Part shown: piece by piece, positions 12,131 through 59,812 of the stretch
Layout: every line of letters begins with the position of its first letter
Numbering within the stretch: position 1 is the first letter of the stretch
Origin: Candidatus Aerophobetes bacterium Ae_b3a
Lineage (GTDB): Bacteria > Aerophobota > Aerophobia > Aerophobales > AE-B3A
Direction: 5' to 3'
NCBI GenBank assembly: GCA_005223095.1
Contig: NJBQ01000001.1
Span: 8,408-72,407, forward strand
Length of the DNA: 64,000 nt
Program-made: the position numbers and the translations under genes
Notes under the pieces: model-generated
The model's input: the letters and a program-made list of their open reading frames with translations, nothing else
The model's database searches: none
Told to the model about the DNA's origin: nothing

Positions 12131-12509
12131 AATTGTCCTTTTTCAAGACATTTCAGTGGGAAAAATAGGGCTTCGCCGATTCCTTGGGAATTTCAGTCCT
12201 CAACAGCCCAATTGGCAAAGCCGACTCTCGCTCCGCTTGCGCTCGCAATAGCTGAATATTTATCTAATGGCATTTCCCTAGTCATAACTTAAGCCAAATT
12301 TCACCTCTTGTCAATCTGATTTGGAGGTGGACATTCCCCAGGATTTGAGAGGTGTTCTCCCGAGAGTCTGAATTGAAGGGGCATTCTAATCAAGAAATAT
12401 TCTGAGGTCTAAGGATTCTCTGAATATTTGCCGATAATAACAAATAAGAAAGAGTTTCCTTATTCTCGATTGTCCGCAGCATTTCTTCTTATTTTGCTTC
12501 GACAGAATC

Positions 12510-12884
12510 ATTAGTTGAGAGAGATTATTTAGCCTACACCAAACTTGACAAGCATACCTATTTGTCTTATACTACCAAATGATGAAGATAGACAAAGGTG
12601 AGCTTCTAGAGAAGCTAAGTCAGACAAATTTATGGCAAAACTTGTCTGCAGAAGAGGTTAGAGTATATCTGCTTCTCATAATCTGTGCTGATGAAATAAG
12701 TGGAAGGTTCTGATTTTAGTGAAGACTCAGGATATACCCTAATGAAATTTCTTCTGGGTAGAAGCAATCTTCCTACAGCAGGTGACAGTTTATAACTTGA
12801 GTTAAGAAGACGGATAATTTAGGGGTTAAGGAGCTAAAAATGAGGCCGGAGGGAGGTGAGAAGTAGGTAGACCATTAGCTGGGG
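12510..12884 (+). promoter_or_regulatory. conserved promoter-plus-leader element, copy A: TTGACA(12544-12549)-17-TATACT(12567-12572), then a ~300-nt conserved 5' leader for the downstream family-5 SBP operon
   Basis: Near-identical to the reverse complement of 47929-48312, which occupies the same position relative to the second SBP gene. Contains the dyad AGCTTCT-AG-AGAAGCT, the hairpin CAGACAA-N14-TTGTCTG and a purine-rich GGAGGGAGGTGAGAAG block. Confidence 0.6.
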
Positions 12885-12978: not shown

Positions 12979-14886
12979 ATGAAGAAAAGTTGGCTACTGG
13001 TGAGTTTTATCGTAGGCCTTAGTGTGGTTCTTCTGTCAAGCGTGGCGGCGTTCTCACAGCTTCCGCCGGGCATACCGCGACATGAAACGGTGATGATAGA
13101 TCAAATTTTTAGATACAGCGTTACTAATAACTTCAACCTCTGGACGCCAGGAGCAGGATCTACACCCACCAGACAGGGACTTGTATGCGATACCCTGTGG
13201 TATATAGACCAACAGACGGGTGAGTGGATCAACGCTTTAGCCAAAGAGCCACCCATTTACAGTGAGGATTTTACCAAAATGAGTGTGAAACTGAGGAAAG
13301 GAATCTACTGGAGCGACGGAGTCGAGTTCACGGCCGACGATGTTGTATTTACGGTTAAGAATCTAACCAGTCATCCTGCGATGATGTGGGGCACCGAACT
13401 CGAGCTCTATGTTGAGGATGTTCATAAGGTCGACGATTATACAGTTGTTTTTGAATTGACGAAGCCTTACTCGAGGTTTCACAATGTTTTCACTGCCCGG
13501 TATTACGCCGTCTACATCATGCCAAAACATATCTGGGAGAAAGTAGAAAAGCCTATGGAATTTACCTTTTATCCTCCTGTCTCTTTAGGCCCCTATATTC
13601 TGAAGGATGCAGATTCAGCAGGATACTGGGAACTTTTTGAAAGGAGAGAGGACTGGGAGAGAACAAGCGTTGGAAAAGTTACTGGCATGCCACCAGCACC
13701 AAAATATTTCCTGACTATTTTCTACGGTCCCAGTGAGAAGAAGGTTATGGCTATGTCAAAGCACGAGCTGGACTTGTTTATGAATGTCGATTATGAAGCT
13801 TTCAAGAGTCTCCTGGAAAAAGACTCCTATGCTCGTTCCTGGTACAAGGATTACCCGTGGGCATGGCCTGATGAACTTGATGGCAGACGGTTCGGCTTTA
13901 ACCTTGAGAAATTCCCCTACCATATAAAGGATGTTAGGTGGGCTTTGGCACTGGCCCTGGATATAGTAGATCTACAAACAGAATACCTCGGTGGAGTAAC
14001 TAGAGTTACTCCGATTCCCCAACCTGCAACTCCGTTCCACATGAAAAACTACCACAAGCCTCTGGAACCGTGGCTCAGGGAGTTCAAGATTGAGGCTGAG
14101 GAAGGCGTCTATTTCAAGCCCTACGATGAGACTGTGCCATATCAGATTGCCGAGTGGGCTAAAAAACAAGGATACTCAGTACCCAGCGAACCAGAAGATA
14201 TGAAAGATATGTTTGGTGTTGGATGGTGGAAGCACGCTCCCGACGTATCGGAGAAGCTACTCAAGAAGCATGGCTTCAAGAGGAATGCGCAAGGCAAATG
14301 GTTGCTTCCAGATGGTACTCTCTGGAAATTCAAAATTATAGCTGCACCCGATGAGGTAGATGTCTTTCGACTCGCACTTGGCGCTGTTGACCAGTGGAGA
14401 GAGTTCGGGATAGAGGTAGAGGTTTCGACACTGGAAAGGGATCCTTATTATACCTCTAACTCTCTGGGAGACTTCACTTGTACCTCTGCTTGGGGTGGTG
14501 CTTATACCGCTACGGCCGTACTGGATAAATGGCCGTTCATATACAGCTTCCATTCCAAGTTTTATAGACCAACTGGAGAGAGGTCGGTTTCGACTTTTAC
14601 CAATAGCGAGAGAATAAAATCTGAAGAACTTGACCGACTCATAGATGAGATGGAAAAGTTTCCTCCTAACGATCCGAAAACTCCGGAGCTGGTGAAGGAG
14701 TTTATGAAATTGTGGGTCGAGAATATGTGGTCGATCTGTACCGTTAGCTTCAAGAAATTCGTCACCCAAGATGAGTACTACTGGACTCACTTTCCCACCG
14801 CTGATGATCCATACGGGCAACCCTGCTACTGGTTCATGGGAGGTAGGTTCATACTCCCGCATCTTAAGGCTACGGGAAGAAAGTAG
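12979..14886 (+). CDS. ABC transporter substrate-binding protein, family 5 (DppA/OppA-type), secreted
   Basis: Signal peptide MKKSWLLVSFIVGLSVVLLSSVAAFSQ. 635 aa with family-5 SBP architecture. AGGAGG RBS. Confidence 0.85.
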   Translation: MKKSWLLVSFIVGLSVVLLSSVAAFSQLPPGIPRHETVMIDQIFRYSVTNNFNLWTPGAGSTPTRQGLVCDTLWYIDQQTGEWINALAKEPPIYSEDFTKMSVKLRKGIYWSDGVEFTADDVVFTVKNLTSHPAMMWGTELELYVEDVHKVDDYTVVFELTKPYSRFHNVFTARYYAVYIMPKHIWEKVEKPMEFTFYPPVSLGPYILKDADSAGYWELFERREDWERTSVGKVTGMPPAPKYFLTIFYGPSEKKVMAMSKHELDLFMNVDYEAFKSLLEKDSYARSWYKDYPWAWPDELDGRRFGFNLEKFPYHIKDVRWALALALDIVDLQTEYLGGVTRVTPIPQPATPFHMKNYHKPLEPWLREFKIEAEEGVYFKPYDETVPYQIAEWAKKQGYSVPSEPEDMKDMFGVGWWKHAPDVSEKLLKKHGFKRNAQGKWLLPDGTLWKFKIIAAPDEVDVFRLALGAVDQWREFGIEVEVSTLERDPYYTSNSLGDFTCTSAWGGAYTATAVLDKWPFIYSFHSKFYRPTGERSVSTFTNSERIKSEELDRLIDEMEKFPPNDPKTPELVKEFMKLWVENMWSICTVSFKKFVTQDEYYWTHFPTADDPYGQPCYWFMGGRFILPHLKATGRK

Positions 14887-22794: not shown

Positions 22795-23592
22795 TTATTC
22801 TTTTACTGCTCTGATTAAGCTTTCAGCAAAAACTCCCACTTTTTCAACTAAAGTTTTGCTCCCTTGATGTTTTTCTATTTTCTTGACGATGGCACTCCCC
22901 ACTATTACTGCCTCGGCTAAGGAGGCGGTTTTTCTGGCTTCTGAAGGTGAGGAGATGCCAAATCCTATTCCTACCGGGGTTGAGGTAAGAGAGTGAACCT
23001 TGGTTACTAAATCTCTTAAGTTTTTATCTTCTCTTTTTTCATCACCGGTAATGCCGGTGTAGGCTACACAATAGATAAATCCTTGACTTTTCTGGCAGAC
23101 TAACTTTATTCTATCTTCTGAGCTAACCGGAGTAAGGAGAAGGATAAGAACAAGGTTGTTTTTCTTAGACTCTTTTAGCAAAAAATGAGCCTCTTCTGGA
23201 GGAAGGTCAACGATTATTAATCCATCTACCCCTGCCCCAGATGCTCTTTCTATGAATTCTCTTTCTCCAAATTTGAAAATGGGGTTGTAGTAGCCCATTA
23301 AAACAATGGGAATCTCCGTCTCTTGGCGCAATTCTCCAACCAGGCTCAATATTTTTGGAAGGGAGGTTCCTTTTTCCAATGCTCGCTGGGAGGACTTTTG
23401 AATAACTGGTCCCTCGGCAAGGGGGTCAGAAAAGGGGACTCCCAGCTCGATAATATCAGCCCCTCTTTTTTCCAGTTCAAGAACCAGAGCTTTACTGGTA
23501 GTAAAATCTGGATCTCCCGCTGTAATAAAGGAAATAAAGGCTTTTTTGCCCTCCTTCTTCAATTCCTTAAACTTTTTTTTAATACGATTCAC
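22795..23592 (-). CDS. trpA: tryptophan synthase alpha subunit
   Basis: KKAFISFITAGDPDF...ADIIELGVPFSDPLAEGPVIQ are TrpA active-site blocks. The GTG start at 23590-23592 (VNRIKKKF) with GAGGT 8 nt upstream is preferred over the upstream ATG of the ORF track (to 23709), whose extra 39 residues are not TrpA-like. Confidence 0.8.
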   Translation of the reverse strand: MNRIKKKFKELKKEGKKAFISFITAGDPDFTTSKALVLELEKRGADIIELGVPFSDPLAEGPVIQKSSQRALEKGTSLPKILSLVGELRQETEIPIVLMGYYNPIFKFGEREFIERASGAGVDGLIIVDLPPEEAHFLLKESKKNNLVLILLLTPVSSEDRIKLVCQKSQGFIYCVAYTGITGDEKREDKNLRDLVTKVHSLTSTPVGIGFGISSPSEARKTASLAEAVIVGSAIVKKIEKHQGSKTLVEKVGVFAESLIRAVKE

Positions 23593-23748
23593 TCTTAACC
23601 TCGATTTTAGCGTTAATATCTGGTGTTTTTCATATTTTCCACTATCGTGTTGCCATTGCCAGGCGAAGCCGAAGCAATCCCATGAGATTGCCACGCTTGT
23701 TTTCAGCAAGTTCGCAATGACGGAAAACAGGGATCTATACGCTAAACG

Positions 23749-24942
23749 CTATCCGCTATCTACTATTCCACTTACCTGCTCTACATCCTTATCGCCCCGT
23801 CCAGACAGATTAACCACCACTATCTTATCCTTGTCCAATTCAGGCACCAGTTTGCTTAGATAGGCAATAGCATGGGCACTTTCCAGGGCTGGAATGATTC
23901 CCTCCAGTTCAGATAGAGTTTGAAAAGCTTTCAGCGCCTCCCTGTCATTAACGGTAACATATTTGGCTCTGCCGATTTTTTTAAGATGGGAGTGTTCTGG
24001 TCCAACTCCTGGATAATCCAGGCCAGCAGCCACTGAGTGAGTTAGGCTGATTTGTCCATATTTATCTTGCAGTAGATAGCTTTTTGCTCCATGCAGTATA
24101 CCGATGCTCCCTCGAGCTAGGGTGGCTCCGTGTTTATCTTCTGAAAGATCTAGCCCTCCTGCTTCCACTCCAATTAATTGCACAGCATCTTCCAGAAAAG
24201 GGTAAAAGAGCCCCAGGGAATTACTGCCTCCTCCCACACAGGCTACCAGATAGTCAGGCACTCTTTTCTCTTTGAGCAGAATTTGTTCTTTTGTTTCCTT
24301 GCCTATGACTGATTGAAAATCCCGCACCATCATAGGATAGGGGTGAGGTCCCACTACTGAGCCCAGAACATAATAAGTAGTTCTGACATTGGTTACCCAA
24401 TCTCTAATGGTTTCATTGATTGCATCCTTTAAAGTACAGCTTCCTGAGGAAACAGGAATTACTTCTGCACCTAATAACTCCATTCTAAATACATTAAGTC
24501 GCTGCCGTCTAATATCCTCATCTCCCATATATACTCTACAGGGAAGCCCTAATACAGCGGCAGCCGTAGCTGTGGCTACCCCATGTTGACCAGCTCCAGT
24601 TTCAGCAATAATACGTTTTTTGCCCATTCTTTTAGCTAGAAGTACCTGTCCCAGAGTATTATTGATTTTATGAGCTCCGGTATGGGCCAGGTCTTCTCTT
24701 TTAAGATAAATCTTAGCTCCAGCTAAGCTTTTGGTTAGTCTTTCGGCAAAATAAAGTGGCGTGGGGCGACCAGCATAATCGGCTAAATATTTCTCTAATC
24801 TCTTATGAAAATCTTTATCTTCTTTTGCTTCTGAATAAGCCTCCTCTAATTCTTTCAGAGCAGGCATAAGTGTTTCGGGAACAAATTTTCCTCCGAAGGC
24901 TCCAAAATGTCCTTTTTTATCGGGCAGACTATGATGCTCCAT
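23749..24942 (-). CDS. trpB: tryptophan synthase beta subunit (TrpB1)
   Basis: [16 protein letters not shown], the PLP lysine region HTGAHKINN, and GGGSN. Confidence 0.9.
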
Positions 24943-25561: not shown

Positions 25562-25651
25562 ATTGCGTTAATTAACCCCTCACCTTAATCCTCTCCCCCA
25601 AGGGGAGAGGGAATTTCTTTTTTCGAGCAACGAATTTCGATTCACCATTCA

Positions 25652-26500
25652 CTAAATACTATTCACCATTTTAAGCTCTCTCAGTTTTTCTCCCACATTT
25701 TTACTTTTCAATAAGGCCTCTCCTATCAAAAAGGCATCTACTCCTGCTTCTTGGAGCCTGTAGATATCTTTTTTATTGTTAATTCCACTTTCACTGACTA
25801 CTACTCTATCCGAAGGTATCTTCTTTATAAGATTGAAACTCATCTTTAAATCTACTTTAAGATTTTCCAGATTCCTATTATTAATGCCCACAATATCAAC
25901 AGGAAGGTCTTTGATTTTTTGCCACTCTTCCTCAGCGTGAATTTCTACCAGACAGTCTAAATCCATTTGCCAGGCCAAATCTAGATATTCTTTTAACTTT
26001 TCTCTATCTAATATGCGAGCAATTAGGAGTAGAGCATCCGCTCCCCCGGTTCTAGCCTCATAAATTTGATACTCATCCACTATAAACTCTTTTGCCAGAA
26101 TGGGAAGGGAAGAGGCTTTCCTCGCCTTCTCTAAATCTTTAAGCTCTCCCTTAAAGAACTTCTGGTCAGTCAAAATAGATAGAGCTGAGGCGCCATTCTT
26201 CTCATAAATTCTGGCTAGTTCCTCTAAACTAAAATTTTTAATTATAACTCCAGCTGAAGGGGAGGCTCTCTTAATCTCAGCAATAATATTAATCTTTGTT
26301 GCAGAGGAGATAGCTTTCCTGAAGTTCCTGGTGGGAGTAGAAGCGGCTAGCTTCGATTTTAGGGCCGCCAATGGGACTTCTTTTTTTCGCCTGGCAACCT
26401 CTTTAAGCTTATTATTTACTATCTCATCTAAGATCAAAGTCGTTCCCCTCACCCCATCCCTCTCCCCACAGGGGAGAGGGCGCCATTTACCACTCACCAA
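25652..26500 (-). CDS. trpC: indole-3-glycerol phosphate synthase
   Basis: ILDEIVNNKLKEV..., IIAEIKRASPS, VDAFLIGEALLKS are IGPS blocks. Confidence 0.85.
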   Translation of the reverse strand: MVSGKWRPLPCGERDGVRGTTLILDEIVNNKLKEVARRKKEVPLAALKSKLAASTPTRNFRKAISSATKINIIAEIKRASPSAGVIIKNFSLEELARIYEKNGASALSILTDQKFFKGELKDLEKARKASSLPILAKEFIVDEYQIYEARTGGADALLLIARILDREKLKEYLDLAWQMDLDCLVEIHAEEEWQKIKDLPVDIVGINNRNLENLKVDLKMSFNLIKKIPSDRVVVSESGINNKKDIYRLQEAGVDAFLIGEALLKSKNVGEKLRELKMVNSI

Positions 26501-27571: not shown

Positions 27572-27616
27572 TTTTTTTCGGTCCTATACGCTAAACGCTA
27601 CCCGCTATACGCTATA

Positions 27617-29712: not shown

Positions 29713-29880
29713 TAATTTGCCCCCTCACCCTACTCCCCCAAGGGGGGAGAGGGTGTTTTCTTTTCTTGCCAGTGACTAGCAAGTAGTGACAAGCGACGAA
29801 TTTTGAGGAATGTCCTTCGGTACAGATGCAAATTCCTCTGATTCAAGTAGATGTAGCTAGAGAGGAATAATAAGCAGAAC

Positions 29881-31654: not shown

Positions 31655-31806
31655 CTATTCCTCGTATCTCGTTTCCTCTTCCCCAGGGGAAGAGGATTAA
31701 AGTGAGGGGGAATCGAGCAATCAGTATCTAGAACTCAGACCCTTTTCTTTTTCTAAGGTGCGATTCACCATTCACCACTCACCATTCACGAACAACGGGT
31801 CTTAAG

Positions 31807-34607: not shown

Positions 34608-34664
34608 ACTTTCCCCTCACCCTTCCCTCTCCCCAGAGAGGAGAGGGCATACGATATACGAGTA

Positions 34665-39052: not shown

Positions 39053-39603
39053 TGAGCACCGATAAATATCCTGATAAATTCTTGTTCAAAGACTCTTCTA
39101 GAAATGGCCAGGGGAATAAAGCGGAGAAGTTCTTCTATGCCAGTTGATATTTTTGTCTTTACCCGCATAAGAGTTGATATGTTTCTGCCTTTCTTAAAAC
39201 AGTAAATTCTTCCTTTTATCTCTCTGTCATCAAACACATAGGAATGAGTTAATCCTGACTTTTCTAGCTTTTCCCCCGCCTTTTTTTGTTCCTGAAGTAT
39301 TGTTTCCTCCTTGGATAGCTTAGCAAAGGAGAGATAAAGACCATCAATCCGTAGTCTCCCTTCCTTTTCCAAATAGGCAATTTCCTCTCTTTTGTTGTCA
39401 TATACCTTGATGCCACTCCTGGCAGGATAAAATGTCTCCAGGTAGCCTTTTATTCCTTGCGGAGTCTTTACTTCCAGCACTAGAGGTAGCTTCTTTTCTT
39501 TTAGGATAAAGTCGCCATCTATATAACCCAGCAGTCTGCTATCTTTCTCTATCTTTAGTAGGTGCGTTCTATTTTGGTTGGTTCTAATGATATATCGGTT
39601 CAT
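39049..39603 (-). CDS. hypothetical protein (184 aa), first gene of the AAA+/vWA operon
   Basis: Starts MNRYII, sharing the MNRYI start with the AAA+ protein's N-terminal extension. No recognisable catalytic motif. Confidence 0.4.
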   Translation of the reverse strand: MNRYIIRTNQNRTHLLKIEKDSRLLGYIDGDFILKEKKLPLVLEVKTPQGIKGYLETFYPARSGIKVYDNKREEIAYLEKEGRLRIDGLYLSFAKLSKEETILQEQKKAGEKLEKSGLTHSYVFDDREIKGRIYCFKKGRNISTLMRVKTKISTGIEELLRFIPLAISRRVFEQEFIRIFIGAQ

Positions 39604-39689
39604 TAAATCGTCGCCATTCTCGTATTGCGTCGTGCGTGATGCGTATTGCGCAATATGAAATACGAAAAGCGTAAATATTCACCGAACGA

Positions 39690-39790
39690 CGTCATTGCGA
39701 GCGCAAGCGAAGCAATCTCATTCTTCATCAGAGATTGCCACGTCGTCCTGAAGGCTTTCAGGACTCCTCGCAATGACAGAAAGAAACGTA
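39690..39790 (+). repeat. multi-hairpin intergenic repeat element (module F), full copy: outer arms GTCATTGCGAG/CTCGCAATGAC enclosing hairpins GCAATCTCAT..AGAGATTGC and GTCCTGAA-ggct-TTCAGGAC
   Basis: Nested inverted repeats read directly from the sequence. A homologous copy lies at 23628-23730, with partial copies at 12222-12252 and 59375-59410 in reverse orientation. Confidence 0.55.
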
Positions 39791-40112
39791 TTTCACTGAG
39801 CATTTACCGAAAAGCGAACAAAGTGAAGCAATCTCAATGAGGTATTGGATATTCAATGTTCTTTTTGGTGTGAAGACTATTTTTCTGTCGCTCAGTCTTG
39901 TATTAGGGGAAAGTTGTTCAGTGTAGGGAATGGCCAGTCCTGTTTTCTACATAACTCTTAGGCTAAAAGGCGCGCATACTGTTTCTTTGCTTCTTTTTTC
40001 TCAGCCCCTCTTCTTTTAGGTTATTTTATTATTTTGTGAACACTCTACATTCATTATATACATTATAACGGCATTGTAAAGGGGAGAAAACGAATCTTTT
40101 AAAATTTACAAA

Positions 40113-41435
40113 CTACCAAAAATGTTTAAATTGAGGCAGTTGGTTTTTGTTTGCCTCAAACATCTCCTTTACCATCTTCTCTATTTCGGCCAGGCTTAAA
40201 ACAGCAGAGGTTAAAGGATCAAAACAGATTGAATGAAATATCATTCTCGGATCACCACTAATAGCACCATCCACTGCCAGCTCTTCGCATCTAGCACTGA
40301 TATTATTGAGAATAGCCAGTTGTGGCGGTAGCGAACCTACATGAATAGGACTAAATCCACGCTTGGAGGTAATTACTGGCACTTCAACACAGCAGCCTTC
40401 TGGAAGATTATCTATAAGACCAAAGTTTCTCACATTTCCATTAAATTCATACAGGGTTCCATCTCCAATTGTGGCATTGAAAATGTTTGCTGCATACTCT
40501 TTGCCTCTTTTTAGGTCTATTGATGGTTCTTCAAGCCATTTCTTTATTTCAGATTTCCAGGTATGCTCTCTTTTCAGGTATTCTTTCAGGATAAAGGCAT
40601 ATTCTCCCGGATTCCAGCCAGTACTATGCCTGCAATATTTCTCTATCAGGTCAGCTCTTTTTCTAAACCAGGCATTGTATTCCGAGTTATGGCCACTGGA
40701 TTCCGTAGCATAATAATCCAGATGGAGAAACATCTCATTTCTTACCTGCTCTTCATTGTAAATCTCAGGTCTCTTAACAGCTTCTTTAATAAGAGGGTAG
40801 ACATCTTTACCATTCCTTTTGAACTCCAGAAACCAAGCCTGATGATTTATCCCGGCACAAAGATAGGTAATCTCTTCCATAGGAGCACCTATCCACTTGG
40901 CCAGCATCTCGGCTGTACCCTGGACGCTGTGGCAAAGACCGGTTACTTTGACTTTGCTCTCACTTTGCATGGCACGACAAAGCATAGCCATAGGGTTTGT
41001 ATAGTTTAGGAAAATAGCCTCAGGGCAGTAATGCTCTATGTCTTTACATATGTCAAGCATTACTGGTATTGTTCTCAAGGCCCTGAAAATTCCAGCCGGG
41101 CCCCTGGTATCGCCAACATTTATATCCACTCCATACTTTTTGGGGATTTCTATATCTGACCGCCATACCTGAACCCCGCCCACAAGGATGGTGCAAACCA
41201 CTCCATCTGCTCCCTTGAGCGCCTCAACTCTATCTTTGGTAGCAAGCACCTTTGCTGGGTAATTTCCCGCAGCGATTATTTTCTCTATTGCTTTTTTCGC
41301 GAAGAAAAGGCGTTCCTCATTGATATCCATAAGCGCTACCGTACTGCCCTCAAGTGCGGGGAAAGTGAGAATATCCCTCACCAATCTTCTGGTGAATTCA
41401 AAGCTCCCTGCTCCTATAAAAGCAATTTTTGGCAT
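40113..41435 (-). CDS. GH4 family NAD+/Mn2+-dependent glycosidase (alpha-glucosidase/alpha-galactosidase type)
   Basis: [18 protein letters not shown] (Rossmann GAGS start), the CHSV region ([10 protein letters not shown]), and ~440 aa, typical of GH4. Confidence 0.85.
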
Positions 41436-47928: not shown

Positions 47929-48312
47929 CCTCATACCCCAGCTAACGACTTACTTGCTTCTCACCTCCCTCTGGCCTTATTTTTAGCTCTTTAACCCTTA
48001 AATTATCCGTCTTCTTAACTCAAGTTATAAACTGTCTCCTGCGGGAGGTCGAGCCGTCCAGTCTCTCATTATAAGCTTTTCCCCCAGCAGCACCTTTTTT
48101 GGCGTCCCTCTATCCTTCCACTTATTTCATCAGCGCAGATTATGAGAAGCAGATATACTCTAACCTCTTCTGCAGACAAGTTTTGCCATAAATTTGTCTG
48201 ACTTAGCTTCTCTAGAAGCTCACCTTTGTCTATCTTCATCACTTAACAGTATAAGATAAATAGGTATGCTTGTCAAGTCTCGTGTAGGCTAAATAATCTC
48301 TCTCAACTAATT
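47929..48312 (-). promoter_or_regulatory. conserved promoter-plus-leader element, copy B (minus orientation): -35 TTGACA at 48276-48271, 17-nt spacer, -10 TATACT at 48253-48248, then a ~300-nt conserved leader
   Basis: Reverse complement aligns with 12510-12884 at roughly 95% identity in two blocks, separated by a ~75-nt non-homologous central segment. Confidence 0.6.
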
Positions 48313-55499: not shown

Positions 55500-55670
55500 C
55501 TCGGACAATTTTCTTCCGTCACCATTCTCGTATCTCGTTGTTCGTATCTCGTATCTAGTGTAACGTATTGCACTATGCTTTTTAAAGCCTTTTTTCGAGA
55601 TACGAGATACTAGATACGATTCACGTTTCTTCAAGGAATGTCCTTCGGCAAACGTATAAGTTCCTAATAC
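55500..55670 (+). repeat. composite intergenic repeat between hslV and hslU: TCACCATTC, CGTATCTCG units as an imperfect long inverted repeat, and a GGAATGTCCTTCGG module
   Basis: The arms CGTATCTCGTATCTAGTG and CGAGATACGAGATACTAGATACG flank a T-rich centre. GGAATGTCCTTCGG also occurs at 29803-29817. CGTATCTCG also occurs at 31673-31683. Confidence 0.5.
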
Positions 55671-59208: not shown

Positions 59209-59812
59209 TATACCTCTATTCCTCTATTGTTCTCTGTCTGGTTAGAAAAGACTTCCCCTGCTTGCCCTATTAAAGGCTTTAGCTCTAACCAGACCTATCC
59301 CAATTTTCTAACGGGATTTATGTCGCTCATAAGATATGAGAGTGATAGATTTTGTCAAGTCAACCCGTCTTTAGGTTGCTTCGCTTCGCCTGGCAATGAC
59401 GAAATTGTACTTCTTCAGCGCCTTCTCAATCTCAACCGCACACGGGGTTGATAAGATGAAGATATTCTTCTATAATGTAAATGATTTTTAATTATAATAA
59501 TGAATAGTTAGCCGCATAGGAATTTCAAAAAATTCCGGAAAATGTCAAGAAATTTGTCCTTAACTTAGAAGGCTGGCGATTTACATCGTTGTCGAAGGAT
59601 ATTTTCTGAAGAAGCCTTATAGGAGCTACCTTAACGAGGCTTCGAGTTGAGGATAAAGAAAAATATACTGTCTGAGGAGCAAAGCGACGAGTTCATATTT
59701 TTCCCGAAACGAGAAGCTAAGTAGAAAGAATAAAAGGCTACTATACAGCGACGGAAGAAATTGTCCTGAGGCATATTTAGGGTAATTATAATAAAAAAGA
59801 GGAGGACAAGAT

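Follow-up and report, generated by a model that had tools for sequence, protein, structure and literature searches.

A CGTC-tagged head-to-head hairpin repeat in a Candidatus Aerophobetes contig, probably a non-autonomous relative of Ssn-type nuclease modules

The 64,000-nt stretch of contig NJBQ01000001.1 from Candidatus Aerophobetes bacterium Ae_b3a that we analyzed (hereafter, the window) contains a multi-hairpin element at positions 39690-39778, which an initial annotation had proposed as a candidate small RNA or MITE (a miniature transposable element with inverted repeats). It lies in a gap of 509 bp, with a GH4 glycosidase gene (40113-41435, minus strand) on one side and, on the other, an operon on the minus strand that runs from 39603 down to 36642 and encodes a 184-aa protein, a 324-aa protein, and an AAA_5 protein. 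The AAA_5 domain was the sole match in this operon; neither of the other two proteins matched a Pfam or PADLOC family. At ~90 bases, the element is a head-to-head (HH) dimer of a directional hairpin unit of 30-48 nt. It is probably a dimer of a REP-like (repetitive extragenic palindrome-like) hairpin repeat from the CGTC-tagged REP/SRM superfamily (SRM, Ssn-related motif), and a non-autonomous copy of an Ssn-type module, in which such repeats accompany a small nuclease gene. Membership in this family is shown by the anatomy of the unit; the data also show covariation of the hairpin, strand-specific features, the presence or absence of copies in relatives, and a tight linkage of this class of units to Ssn-like genes.

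The multi-hairpin element is real, and all of the motifs quoted in the initial annotation are present. An outer inverted repeat, GTCATTGCGAG (39691-39701) and its complement CTCGCAATGAC (39767-39777), encloses two internal hairpins, GCAATCTC...GAGATTGC and GTCCTGAA-GGCT-TTCAGGAC, and the palindrome TATTGCGCAATA lies upstream at 39644-39655. Beside the dimer, GATGCGTATTGCGCAATA (39638-39655) occurs only once in the window. The full sequence of the dimer is CGTCATTGCGAG-CGCAAGC-GAAGCAATCTC, then an 11-nt spacer, then GAGATTGCCACG-TCGTCCTGAAGGCTTTCAGGACTC-CTCGCAATGACA. Its first unit (39690-39719, plus strand) is of the GAA type and reads CGTC-ATTGC-GA-GCGCAAGC-GAA-GCAAT-CTC, with GC-GCAA-GC as the apical part. 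The second (39731-39778, minus strand) is of the GTG type and reads TGTC-ATTGC-GAG-GA-GTCCTGAA-AGCC-TTCAGGAC-GA-CGTG-GCAAT-CTC. Between them, the 11-nt spacer (39720-39730, no strand) forms the central loop. A covariance model, R1, built from 29 foreign repeat units with no window sequence in it, matched both units: the first with 36.2 bits (E = 2e-6), and the second with 26.8 bits (E = 2.9e-4; match at 39731-39777).

The element had also been described as multi-copy, and this is well supported. Allowing at most one mismatch, GTCATTGCGAG occurs four times in the window, against 0.46 occurrences expected, and 0 of 100 shuffles reached four. R1 identified four units in two dimers, with E values from 2e-6 to 3e-3, plus a fifth unit on its own. 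The second dimer (23651-23722) lies between the trpB stop codon (23749) and the real start of trpA, a GTG at 23592 with a GAGG ribosome-binding site; the copy previously placed between these genes is a full dimer that folds weakly. Its first unit (23651-23681, plus strand; 22.6 bits, E = 2.9e-3) has a degenerate tag and reads TGCC-ATTGC-CAG-GCGAAGC-CGAA-GCAAT-CCC, and its second (23684-23722, minus strand; 25.2 bits, E = 7.1e-4) is of the GTG type, CGTC-ATTGC-GAA-CTTG-CTGAAAA-CAAG-CGTG-GCAAT-CTC. The layout is that of dimer 1, with another apical helix, CTTG/CAAG instead of GTCCTGAA/TTCAGGAC. The fifth unit (59372-59401, minus strand; 16.5 bits, E = 0.075) is located 165-190 nt upstream of the topA start and reads CGTC-ATTGC-CAG-GCGAAGC-GAA-GCAAC-CTA, including a 16-nt exact match to the first unit of dimer 2. 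The tags of the window units are CGTC, TGTC, CGTC, and CGTC, with one degenerate (TGCC); GCAA(T/C)-C is present in all of them, and their tails are CTC, CCC, and CTA.

This unit and a copy upstream of a GT4 gene had both been called partial. The topA copy is in fact a complete single unit, while the GT4 copy (12222-12252, minus strand), CAGCT-ATTGC-GA-GCGCAAGC-GGA-GCGAG, is a decayed single unit; it gave no match with R1, and its sole support is a 16-nt exact match, ATTGCGAGCGCAAGCG, to the first unit of dimer 1 (E = 0.001). Two further remnants are found in the window. At 59664-59691 (plus strand), a fragment reading TGTC-TGAG-GAGCAAAGCGAC-GAG retains the tag and the apical part, the ATTGC/GCAAT stem being gone (partial R1 match, 18.1 bits, model positions 10-27). 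Near dimer 1, GTGAAGCAATCTCAATGAGGTATTGG (39816-39845, no strand) is a decayed remnant of a dimer core, based on a 12-nt exact match, GAAGCAATCTCA, to the first unit of dimer 1 and on direct reading.

A pattern for the 5' half of the unit, CATTGCSAG-N2-14-GAAGCAATC, returned at least 120 loci from species-representative genomes and at least 120 contigs from IMG/VR (L121-L240); counts of units, pairs, and neighbor genes given below refer to loci among the matches listed. R1 identified 188 units in the first 100 loci, and the genome and phage loci listed contain 313 distinct units. The bacterial hosts include Alpha-, Gamma-, and Deltaproteobacteria, Chloroflexota, Bacteroidota, Patescibacteria, Planctomycetota, Cyanobacteria, Sporomusa, Helicobacter, and others, and the IMG/VR contigs with units encode capsid-, portal-, terminase-, and tail-like proteins. 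From Proteobacteria to Patescibacteria, Chloroflexota, Cyanobacteria, and tailed phages, ~20 nt of the unit are near-invariant. This ATTGC-type unit has the form [C/T]GTC - ATTGC - GAG - variable spacer - GAA (more rarely GTG or GCG) - GCAAT - C(C/T)N. It consists of a 5' YGTC tag, a 5-bp stem (ATTGC:GCAAT), a GA/GAA or GA/GTG internal loop, an apical mini-hairpin, and a C right after the stem. Across 413 non-redundant units, GCAAT is followed by C (position +1) in 96%, and the base that precedes GTC (position -1) is a pyrimidine in 94%; in the NTS repeat of Neisseria, the positions after the stem and before GTC are those that matter most for binding and cleavage by the nuclease SsnA (PMC11893778). 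The tag is CGTC in 137, TGTC in 67, and AGTC in 7 of 212 units, and the tail CCA in 100, CTC in 55, and CCC in 22 of 212. Mimicry of a tRNA acceptor end by the CCA tail was considered and set aside, since tails in the window read CTC or CCC and binding of the related NTS does not extend to its RNA form. Single units also form head-to-tail arrays, for example at L008:1371-1508 (period ~50 nt) and L172:2694-2820 (~33 nt), which indicates that the basic repeat is the unit and not the dimer.

The apical hairpin varies from 7 to >40 nt in this class. Together with the preceding G, the spacer forms a local hairpin, and the commonest spacers, CGNAGC and GAGCGNAGCGAC, yield GCGNAGC, with a GNA triloop closed by C-G. 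Other apical helices include GCCGCC/GGCGGC, GGACC/GGTCC, and GCCCC/GGGGC, and some apical loops are UUCG- or GNRA-like. The stems are kept by compensatory change, in agreement with the conservation of nested stems noted earlier: the two dimers of the window differ in the apical hairpin, and in a gap-free alignment of 29 units, four of the five pairs of the apical helix have changed on both sides. None of 500 shuffles reached the observed covariation value, and shifting the helix partners by 1-3 columns abolished pairing. The two strands are not equivalent. Read on the YGTC-first strand, the non-Watson-Crick pairs of the apical stems are 96 G.A, 18 G.T, and 6 A.C, which on the opposite strand would become clashes of C.T and C.A. 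In the d(GCGAAGC) literature, DNA mini-hairpins of unusual stability are marked by tandem sheared G.A pairs and C-GNA-G triloops. Judged from the sequences, the strand-specific features of the unit (GCGNAGC mini-hairpins, tandem G.A mismatches, and the 5' YGTC tag) point to a structure formed by single-stranded DNA.

Could the element act as RNA instead, either as a small RNA or in cis, as a stabilizer of mRNA 3' ends, an RNase site, or an attenuator in the trpB-trpA gap or operon leader? Dimer 1 (97-101 nt) has a strong predicted RNA fold (-44.1 and -41.5 kcal/mol for the two strands, z = -4.6 and -5.3). Each of the two dimers has co-directional genes on either side and would be transcribed. 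A strong promoter-like site, TTTACA-16-TATAAT (11 of 12 matches; 40080-40053, minus strand), directly follows the GH4 gene, ~270 nt upstream of dimer 1, and would give the 184-aa/324-aa/AAA_5 operon a leader of ~440 nt with dimer 1 inside it. The UUCG- and GNRA-like apical loops would suit an RNA, and REPs in E. coli stabilize upstream mRNA. As DNA, dimer 1 also folds far better than shuffled sequences (z = -5.8 and -5.9 for the two strands), and in RNA or DNA, on either strand, the fold is the same, an outer stem around a central hairpin plus a side hairpin. Against an RNA function, the trpB-trpA dimer folds no better than shuffled sequences (z about -1.5), no terminator-like site was found in the region of dimer 1, and the whole window has no Rfam match at gathering thresholds, with only noise at E <= 10 around the element. 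Units have no fixed orientation with respect to genes and no link to any gene class. Their G.A mismatches and GNA triloops are of the kind typical for mini-hairpins in DNA, and the nuclease that recognizes the related NTS does not bind it as RNA (PMC11893778). We therefore regard an RNA function as unlikely: the multi-hairpin element is a variant of a known repeat class and not a new small RNA or regulatory RNA. As a secondary effect, a transcribed dimer, in the trpB-trpA gap or in the long leader of the operon, could form a stable RNA hairpin and alter mRNA decay, by analogy with the E. coli REPs.

The arrangement of units with respect to one another and to genes is informative in this context. 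Pairs in the genome loci are mostly HH (63, versus 6 tail-to-tail and 7 head-to-tail). Partner units within a dimer tend to share their tag type (Fisher p = 3e-6) and their tail (76 of 97), which is compatible with pairing between units or with a common origin. Single units in tandem gaps are found in both orientations (46 sense, 30 antisense). In phage contigs, units are placed in short gaps between structural genes, and neighboring single units lie more often on the same strand (25) than on opposite strands (10; p = 0.017), but their polarity relative to genes differs between phages: all 6 units of L138 are antisense (L138:3337-12745), and those of L161 are mostly sense. This variable orientation argues against a transcript-level function of fixed polarity. 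The idea of a phage promoter motif was set aside on the basis of the opposite orientations in L138 and L161. In the window itself, GC skew tracks gene orientation, and replication and transcription therefore cannot be separated by skew.

The same data bear on the idea that the element is an operator or nucleoid-protein site in double-stranded DNA, a palindrome bound by a dimeric regulator whose hairpins are incidental. The dimer is palindromic overall, the ~20 near-invariant nucleotides suggest sequence-specific recognition, and two of the window copies (12222 and 59372) lie in divergent promoter regions. However, directional units often occur singly, most dimers have two unlike arms (heterodimers), and each arm keeps its local hairpin through compensatory change, which a duplex-binding site does not need. 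Among the genome loci, HH dimers occupy 24 tandem, 13 convergent, and 3 divergent gaps, compared with a background of 240, 78, and 72, and are thus under-represented in divergent promoter gaps (3/40 versus 18%). We consider a duplex-binding site very improbable.

Comparison with relatives indicates that copies are gained and lost on a short evolutionary scale. Homologues of the window TrpB that are 95%, 89%, and 86% identical are encoded on public contigs with the same trp operon, and the trpB-trpA dimer is absent from this junction in all three (L241, L242, and L245). In L245, trpB and trpA overlap; in L241 and L242, a short unrelated spacer takes the place of the dimer, and the closest relative, L241, has a single GTG-type unit right after the trpA stop codon. 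In Bradyrhizobium, such repeats persist vertically in orthologous spacers. The earlier suggestion of a MITE or recombination site comes close insofar as the copies are non-autonomous, REPIN-like, and present or absent between relatives, but neither a target-site duplication nor a further target motif was found in the flanks of 413 units. A MITE in the classical sense, an internally deleted DDE transposon with terminal inverted repeats that is moved by a transposase in trans, would account for the several copies and their presence or absence between relatives, and the outer inverted repeat of 11-12 bp does resemble terminal inverted repeats. At one locus, in a Patescibacteria metagenome-assembled genome (MAG), a Mutator-family transposase gene even lies between two ATTGC-type dimers (L045:555-1839); this may be an insertion sequence (IS) inserted into a repeat cluster, or an IS that uses the repeats. 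But single units and tandem arrays exist alone, the inverted repeat consists of two autonomous directional hairpin units, and no transposase recurs across 240 loci, whereas a GIY-YIG gene is tightly linked to the units. There is accordingly little to recommend a classical MITE.

The gene that does recur encodes a small GIY-YIG nuclease. Clustering of neighbor genes at the 240 loci, restricted to open reading frames (ORFs) of >=90 aa with an M start, revealed no recurrent partner; the ~90-aa GIY-YIG gene escaped those criteria. Inspection of the ORFs between nearby units revealed a GIY-YIG protein of ~96 aa exactly inside an HH pair at two loci, in a Pseudomonadota MAG (L119) and a Planctomycetota MAG (L061). 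We then examined 80 metagenome loci that were chosen by GIY-YIG peptide patterns alone, with no use of the repeats. At 62 of these 80, ATTGC-type units lie within ~250 nt of the nuclease gene, in either orientation. They flank it on both sides, HH, at 40 loci, and on one side only at 18 by a strict pattern; a recount with slightly wider flanks gave 40 and 17. Unit density is 4.76/kb within 250 nt of the gene, compared to 0.22/kb elsewhere in the same loci, and the units adjoin the ORF closely, at a median of ~25 nt before its start and ~33 nt after its end. Near-identical nuclease genes occur in unrelated flanks (L249/L263 and L274/L306), and the block they have in common stops at the outer edge of the 3' unit. 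The nuclease belongs to PF01541 in Pfam; searches of its sequence against NCBIfam and PDB gave no match.

At nearly all of the 18 loci that lack ATTGC-type units, repeats of other CGTC-tagged types flank the gene in the layout described above. Among these types are the canonical ATTCCGGC/ATTCCCGC repeat, one with a CTTGA loop, ACCCT-GAG...GAA-GGGT, and ATGGC-GAG...GTG-GCCAT. In the last of these, the ATTGC stem is altered by a compensatory change, and the GTG junction is one that also occurs in the window. Identity between nucleases is 0.61 and 0.68 within a motif type versus 0.56 between types, which fits cognate pairs of nuclease and motif. The nuclease of L246, with ATTGC-type dimers on its flanks, has 60% identity to the homologue from N. 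gonorrhoeae, which is flanked by canonical NTS dimers. Yet another repeat type, scoring 13 bits with the ATTGC-unit model, flanks an ssn-like gene on a Planktothrix agardhii plasmid (L329; NZ_LR882964.1:18447-19513), where the gene sits in a defense island, with an MmeI-type restriction-modification gene on one side and DISARM drmA on the other. In viral contigs, a scan gave one weak match to an ssn-like gene, suggesting that phages carry the units but seldom the gene.

These small nucleases belong to the family of SsnA of N. meningitidis, a 94-aa single-domain GIY-YIG protein that modulates natural transformation (Chenal et al. 2025, Nat Commun 16:2388, PMC11893778). SsnA binds the oriented dRS3 repeat NTS (CGTCATTCCCGCGMAVGCGGGAATCYRG) as single-stranded DNA only, and on one strand only; it does not bind RNA or double-stranded DNA, and it cuts a few nucleotides upstream of the NTS (PMC11893778). 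Binding depends critically on the C that follows the palindrome, and cleavage on the three bases before it (PMC11893778). Homologues of ssnA (cd10448) occur in many phyla and have SRMs on at least one side in 71%, and the NTS-ssnA-NTS layout has been likened to IS and REP/RAYT systems (PMC11893778). The ATTGC-type unit shares with NTS/SRM a 5' HGTC tag, an A-T stem start, a C after the stem, many mostly intergenic copies, and frequent HH pairs; the flanking of a ~90-aa single-domain GIY-YIG gene is likewise shared by the ATTGC-type family, though not within the window itself. The anatomy that defines SRMs is present: an orienting 5' tag, a hairpin-forming semi-palindrome of 20-50 nt, and a C directly after it. 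The two differ in architecture, as the NTS has a continuous 8-bp stem and a 4-nt loop, whereas the ATTGC-type unit has a 5-bp stem, an internal loop, and a variable apical hairpin, and ATTGC-type units are frequent in phage contigs. Neisseria dRS3 and Rickettsia RPE-6 belong to the same superfamily (CGTC-1 is the NTS) but have the stem ATTCCCGC:GCGGGAAT, with no internal loop; the ATTGC-unit model matches Neisseria NTS copies weakly, with 13-14 bits.

A second point of comparison is the CGTC-tagged REPs, for which the text of Di Nocera, De Gregorio, and Rocco (2013, BMC Genomics 14:522, PMC3733652) describes four families, CGTC-1 to CGTC-4, and reports no dedicated transposase or other enzyme. 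As characterized there, these repeats have CGTC or TGTC tags, stems that start with AT, and short tails (consensus CCA), form mostly HH dimers, commonly as heterodimers, and are found in many phyla, mostly downstream of genes; all of these features recur in the ATTGC-type family. We set the ATTGC type apart from the four families using the text and supplement of that paper, as distinct from its consensus figure. The peptides it gives for intragenic copies, VIPAKAGI, RHSELVSGS, VIAGLDPAI/DGRVKPGHD, and WIPWSNHGMT (PMC3733652), decode to the ATTCCCGC..., ATYCTGAA-CTTGT..., ATCGCCGGG-CTTGA..., and ATTCCGTGG... types, none of which is ATTGCGAG...GAAGCAAT. A first hint of the difference from CGTC-1 came from a blastn search of plasmids with a Bradyrhizobium-type dimer, which gave no match in the hosts listed for CGTC-1 in the 2013 text. 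A full-text literature search with the DNA strings of the repeat and six peptide translations returned no relevant paper. On the replicon AZO_p3 of A. lipoferum, where two HH dimers were counted in 2013 according to the same text (PMC3733652), we find a gene annotated as "GIY-YIG nuclease family protein" between sufB and sufC, flanked by two CGTC-1 HH dimers. The enzyme-less CGTC REPs of 2013 and the Ssn/SRM pairs of 2025 thus appear to be one thing.

The GTAG-tagged REP systems offer a further parallel. In these systems, reportedly described by Nunvar in 2010 and by Bertels and Rainey in 2011, REP doublets that form hairpins (REPINs) are associated with REP-associated tyrosine transposases (RAYTs). 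The likeness is considerable: a non-autonomous intergenic hairpin doublet in HH arrangement, a 4-nt tag at the hairpin foot, one enzyme gene flanked by repeats (REPtron-like), and vertical persistence, as in Bradyrhizobium. We nevertheless think that there is only a slight chance that the repeats are REPINs mobilized by a RAYT. Their tag, YGTC, differs from GT[AG]G, the 240 loci show no recurrent Y1 or HUH gene near the units, and the linked gene encodes a hydrolytic GIY-YIG nuclease in place of an HUH/Y1 transposase. Likewise, the text of the 2013 study reports no tyrosine transposase flanked by CGTC repeats (PMC3733652).

By analogy with Neisseria NTS and SsnA, a non-autonomous repeat of the Ssn type would probably work as follows. 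When the YGTC-first strand is exposed as single-stranded DNA, during replication, transformation, or conjugation, the unit would fold into its hairpin. A cognate ~90-aa GIY-YIG Ssn nuclease would then bind the unit and cut a few nucleotides upstream of the tag. Units and nuclease gene together may constitute an IS-like or REPtron-like module (units-ssn-units), of which gene-less HH dimers and single units would be dispersed, non-autonomous copies. For the organism studied here, we infer from the same analogy a cognate nuclease, its cutting of the units in the window, and the way in which copies spread.

Several observations weigh against this interpretation. No Ssn-like gene was found in the 64-kb window or in 46 kb of four related contigs (best hidden Markov model E = 0.87), so the window copies are gene-less dispersed units, some of them clearly decaying. 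The degenerate tag (TGCC) and the decayed units raise the possibility that they are inert relics. The linkage of repeats and nuclease genes is an association and does not show that the nuclease spreads the repeats, and a GIY-YIG nuclease of the hydrolytic kind cannot join DNA on its own. The search string published for SRMs, HGTCWYN(0-2)YYVSBRHN(0-5)WNVSBRGN(0-2)RNCYNB, has no match among 166 ATTGC-type units or anywhere in the window, although it does match the canonical NTS and L294-type units; this string was derived from 29 genomes and is a search device, not a functional definition. In the 2013 text, CGTC-1 to -4 have continuous stems of 8-9 bp and loops of 4-5 nt, whereas the ATTGC-type stem is interrupted. 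The strand argument draws in part on a small count of G.T versus A.C pairs (18 versus 6), with loop-proximal positions included. Finally, the first unit of dimer 1 forms its hairpin in DNA folding, and the second reaches -11.2 kcal/mol (sense strand) and -8.8 kcal/mol (antisense strand), but the fold between the two units of a dimer is far more stable, at about -26 kcal/mol (DNA) versus -2 to -11 for unit hairpins, whose z-scores are not significant at this short length and whose energies come from nearest-neighbor parameters that give no credit to G.A pairs or GNA loops. The unit hairpin may thus rarely form inside a dimer.

A bolder version of the Ssn interpretation is that the ATTGC-GAG...GAA-GCAAT units are a distinct and very widespread Ssn recognition class, missed by current definitions, with gene-less dimers as derivatives of a units-ssn-units element. 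We put this forward tentatively, as a possibility that may well prove wrong. Among the 80 nuclease loci, units matching the published SRM string occur at 10, and no locus has both kinds. With ATTGC-type units as the commonest partner of the sampled Ssn-like genes (62/80), published counts of SRM-flanked ssn genes may be underestimates. If such a class exists, the same-strand bias in phages could reflect mobilization of single-stranded DNA linked to replication, or selection by an Ssn-type restriction of single-stranded DNA. Each pair of Ssn and motif is also a potential tool for cutting single-stranded DNA at a specific sequence, and a class that combines a fixed 20-nt core with an apical hairpin free to vary would offer a specificity worth characterizing.

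Other repeated sequences occur in the gaps of the window. A second family of hairpin repeats, CCCCTCACC...CTCTCCCC-NNN-GGGGAGAG, is present at 25576-25611, 26445-26480, 29716-29751, 31661-31709, and 34612-34647, five copies compared to 0.04 expected, all in short gaps of a long run of minus-strand genes; a similar sequence is also nested in the central loop of an ATTGC-type dimer elsewhere (L017). An inverted duplication of ~375 nt (12510-12884 and 47936-48311; 198 nt at 96% identity and 113 nt at 88%) lies just upstream of two paralogous SBP_bac_5 (oligopeptide-binding) genes, at 12979(+) and 47851(-), and may be a common leader or promoter region. Heptamer-like short tandem repeats (CTATACGCTAAACGCTA..., CGTATCTCGT...) are found in gaps at 23735-23766, 27584-27615, 39609-39646, and 55517-55554, and a 20-nt identical stretch is present at the trpB-trpA junction of the closest relative, L241.

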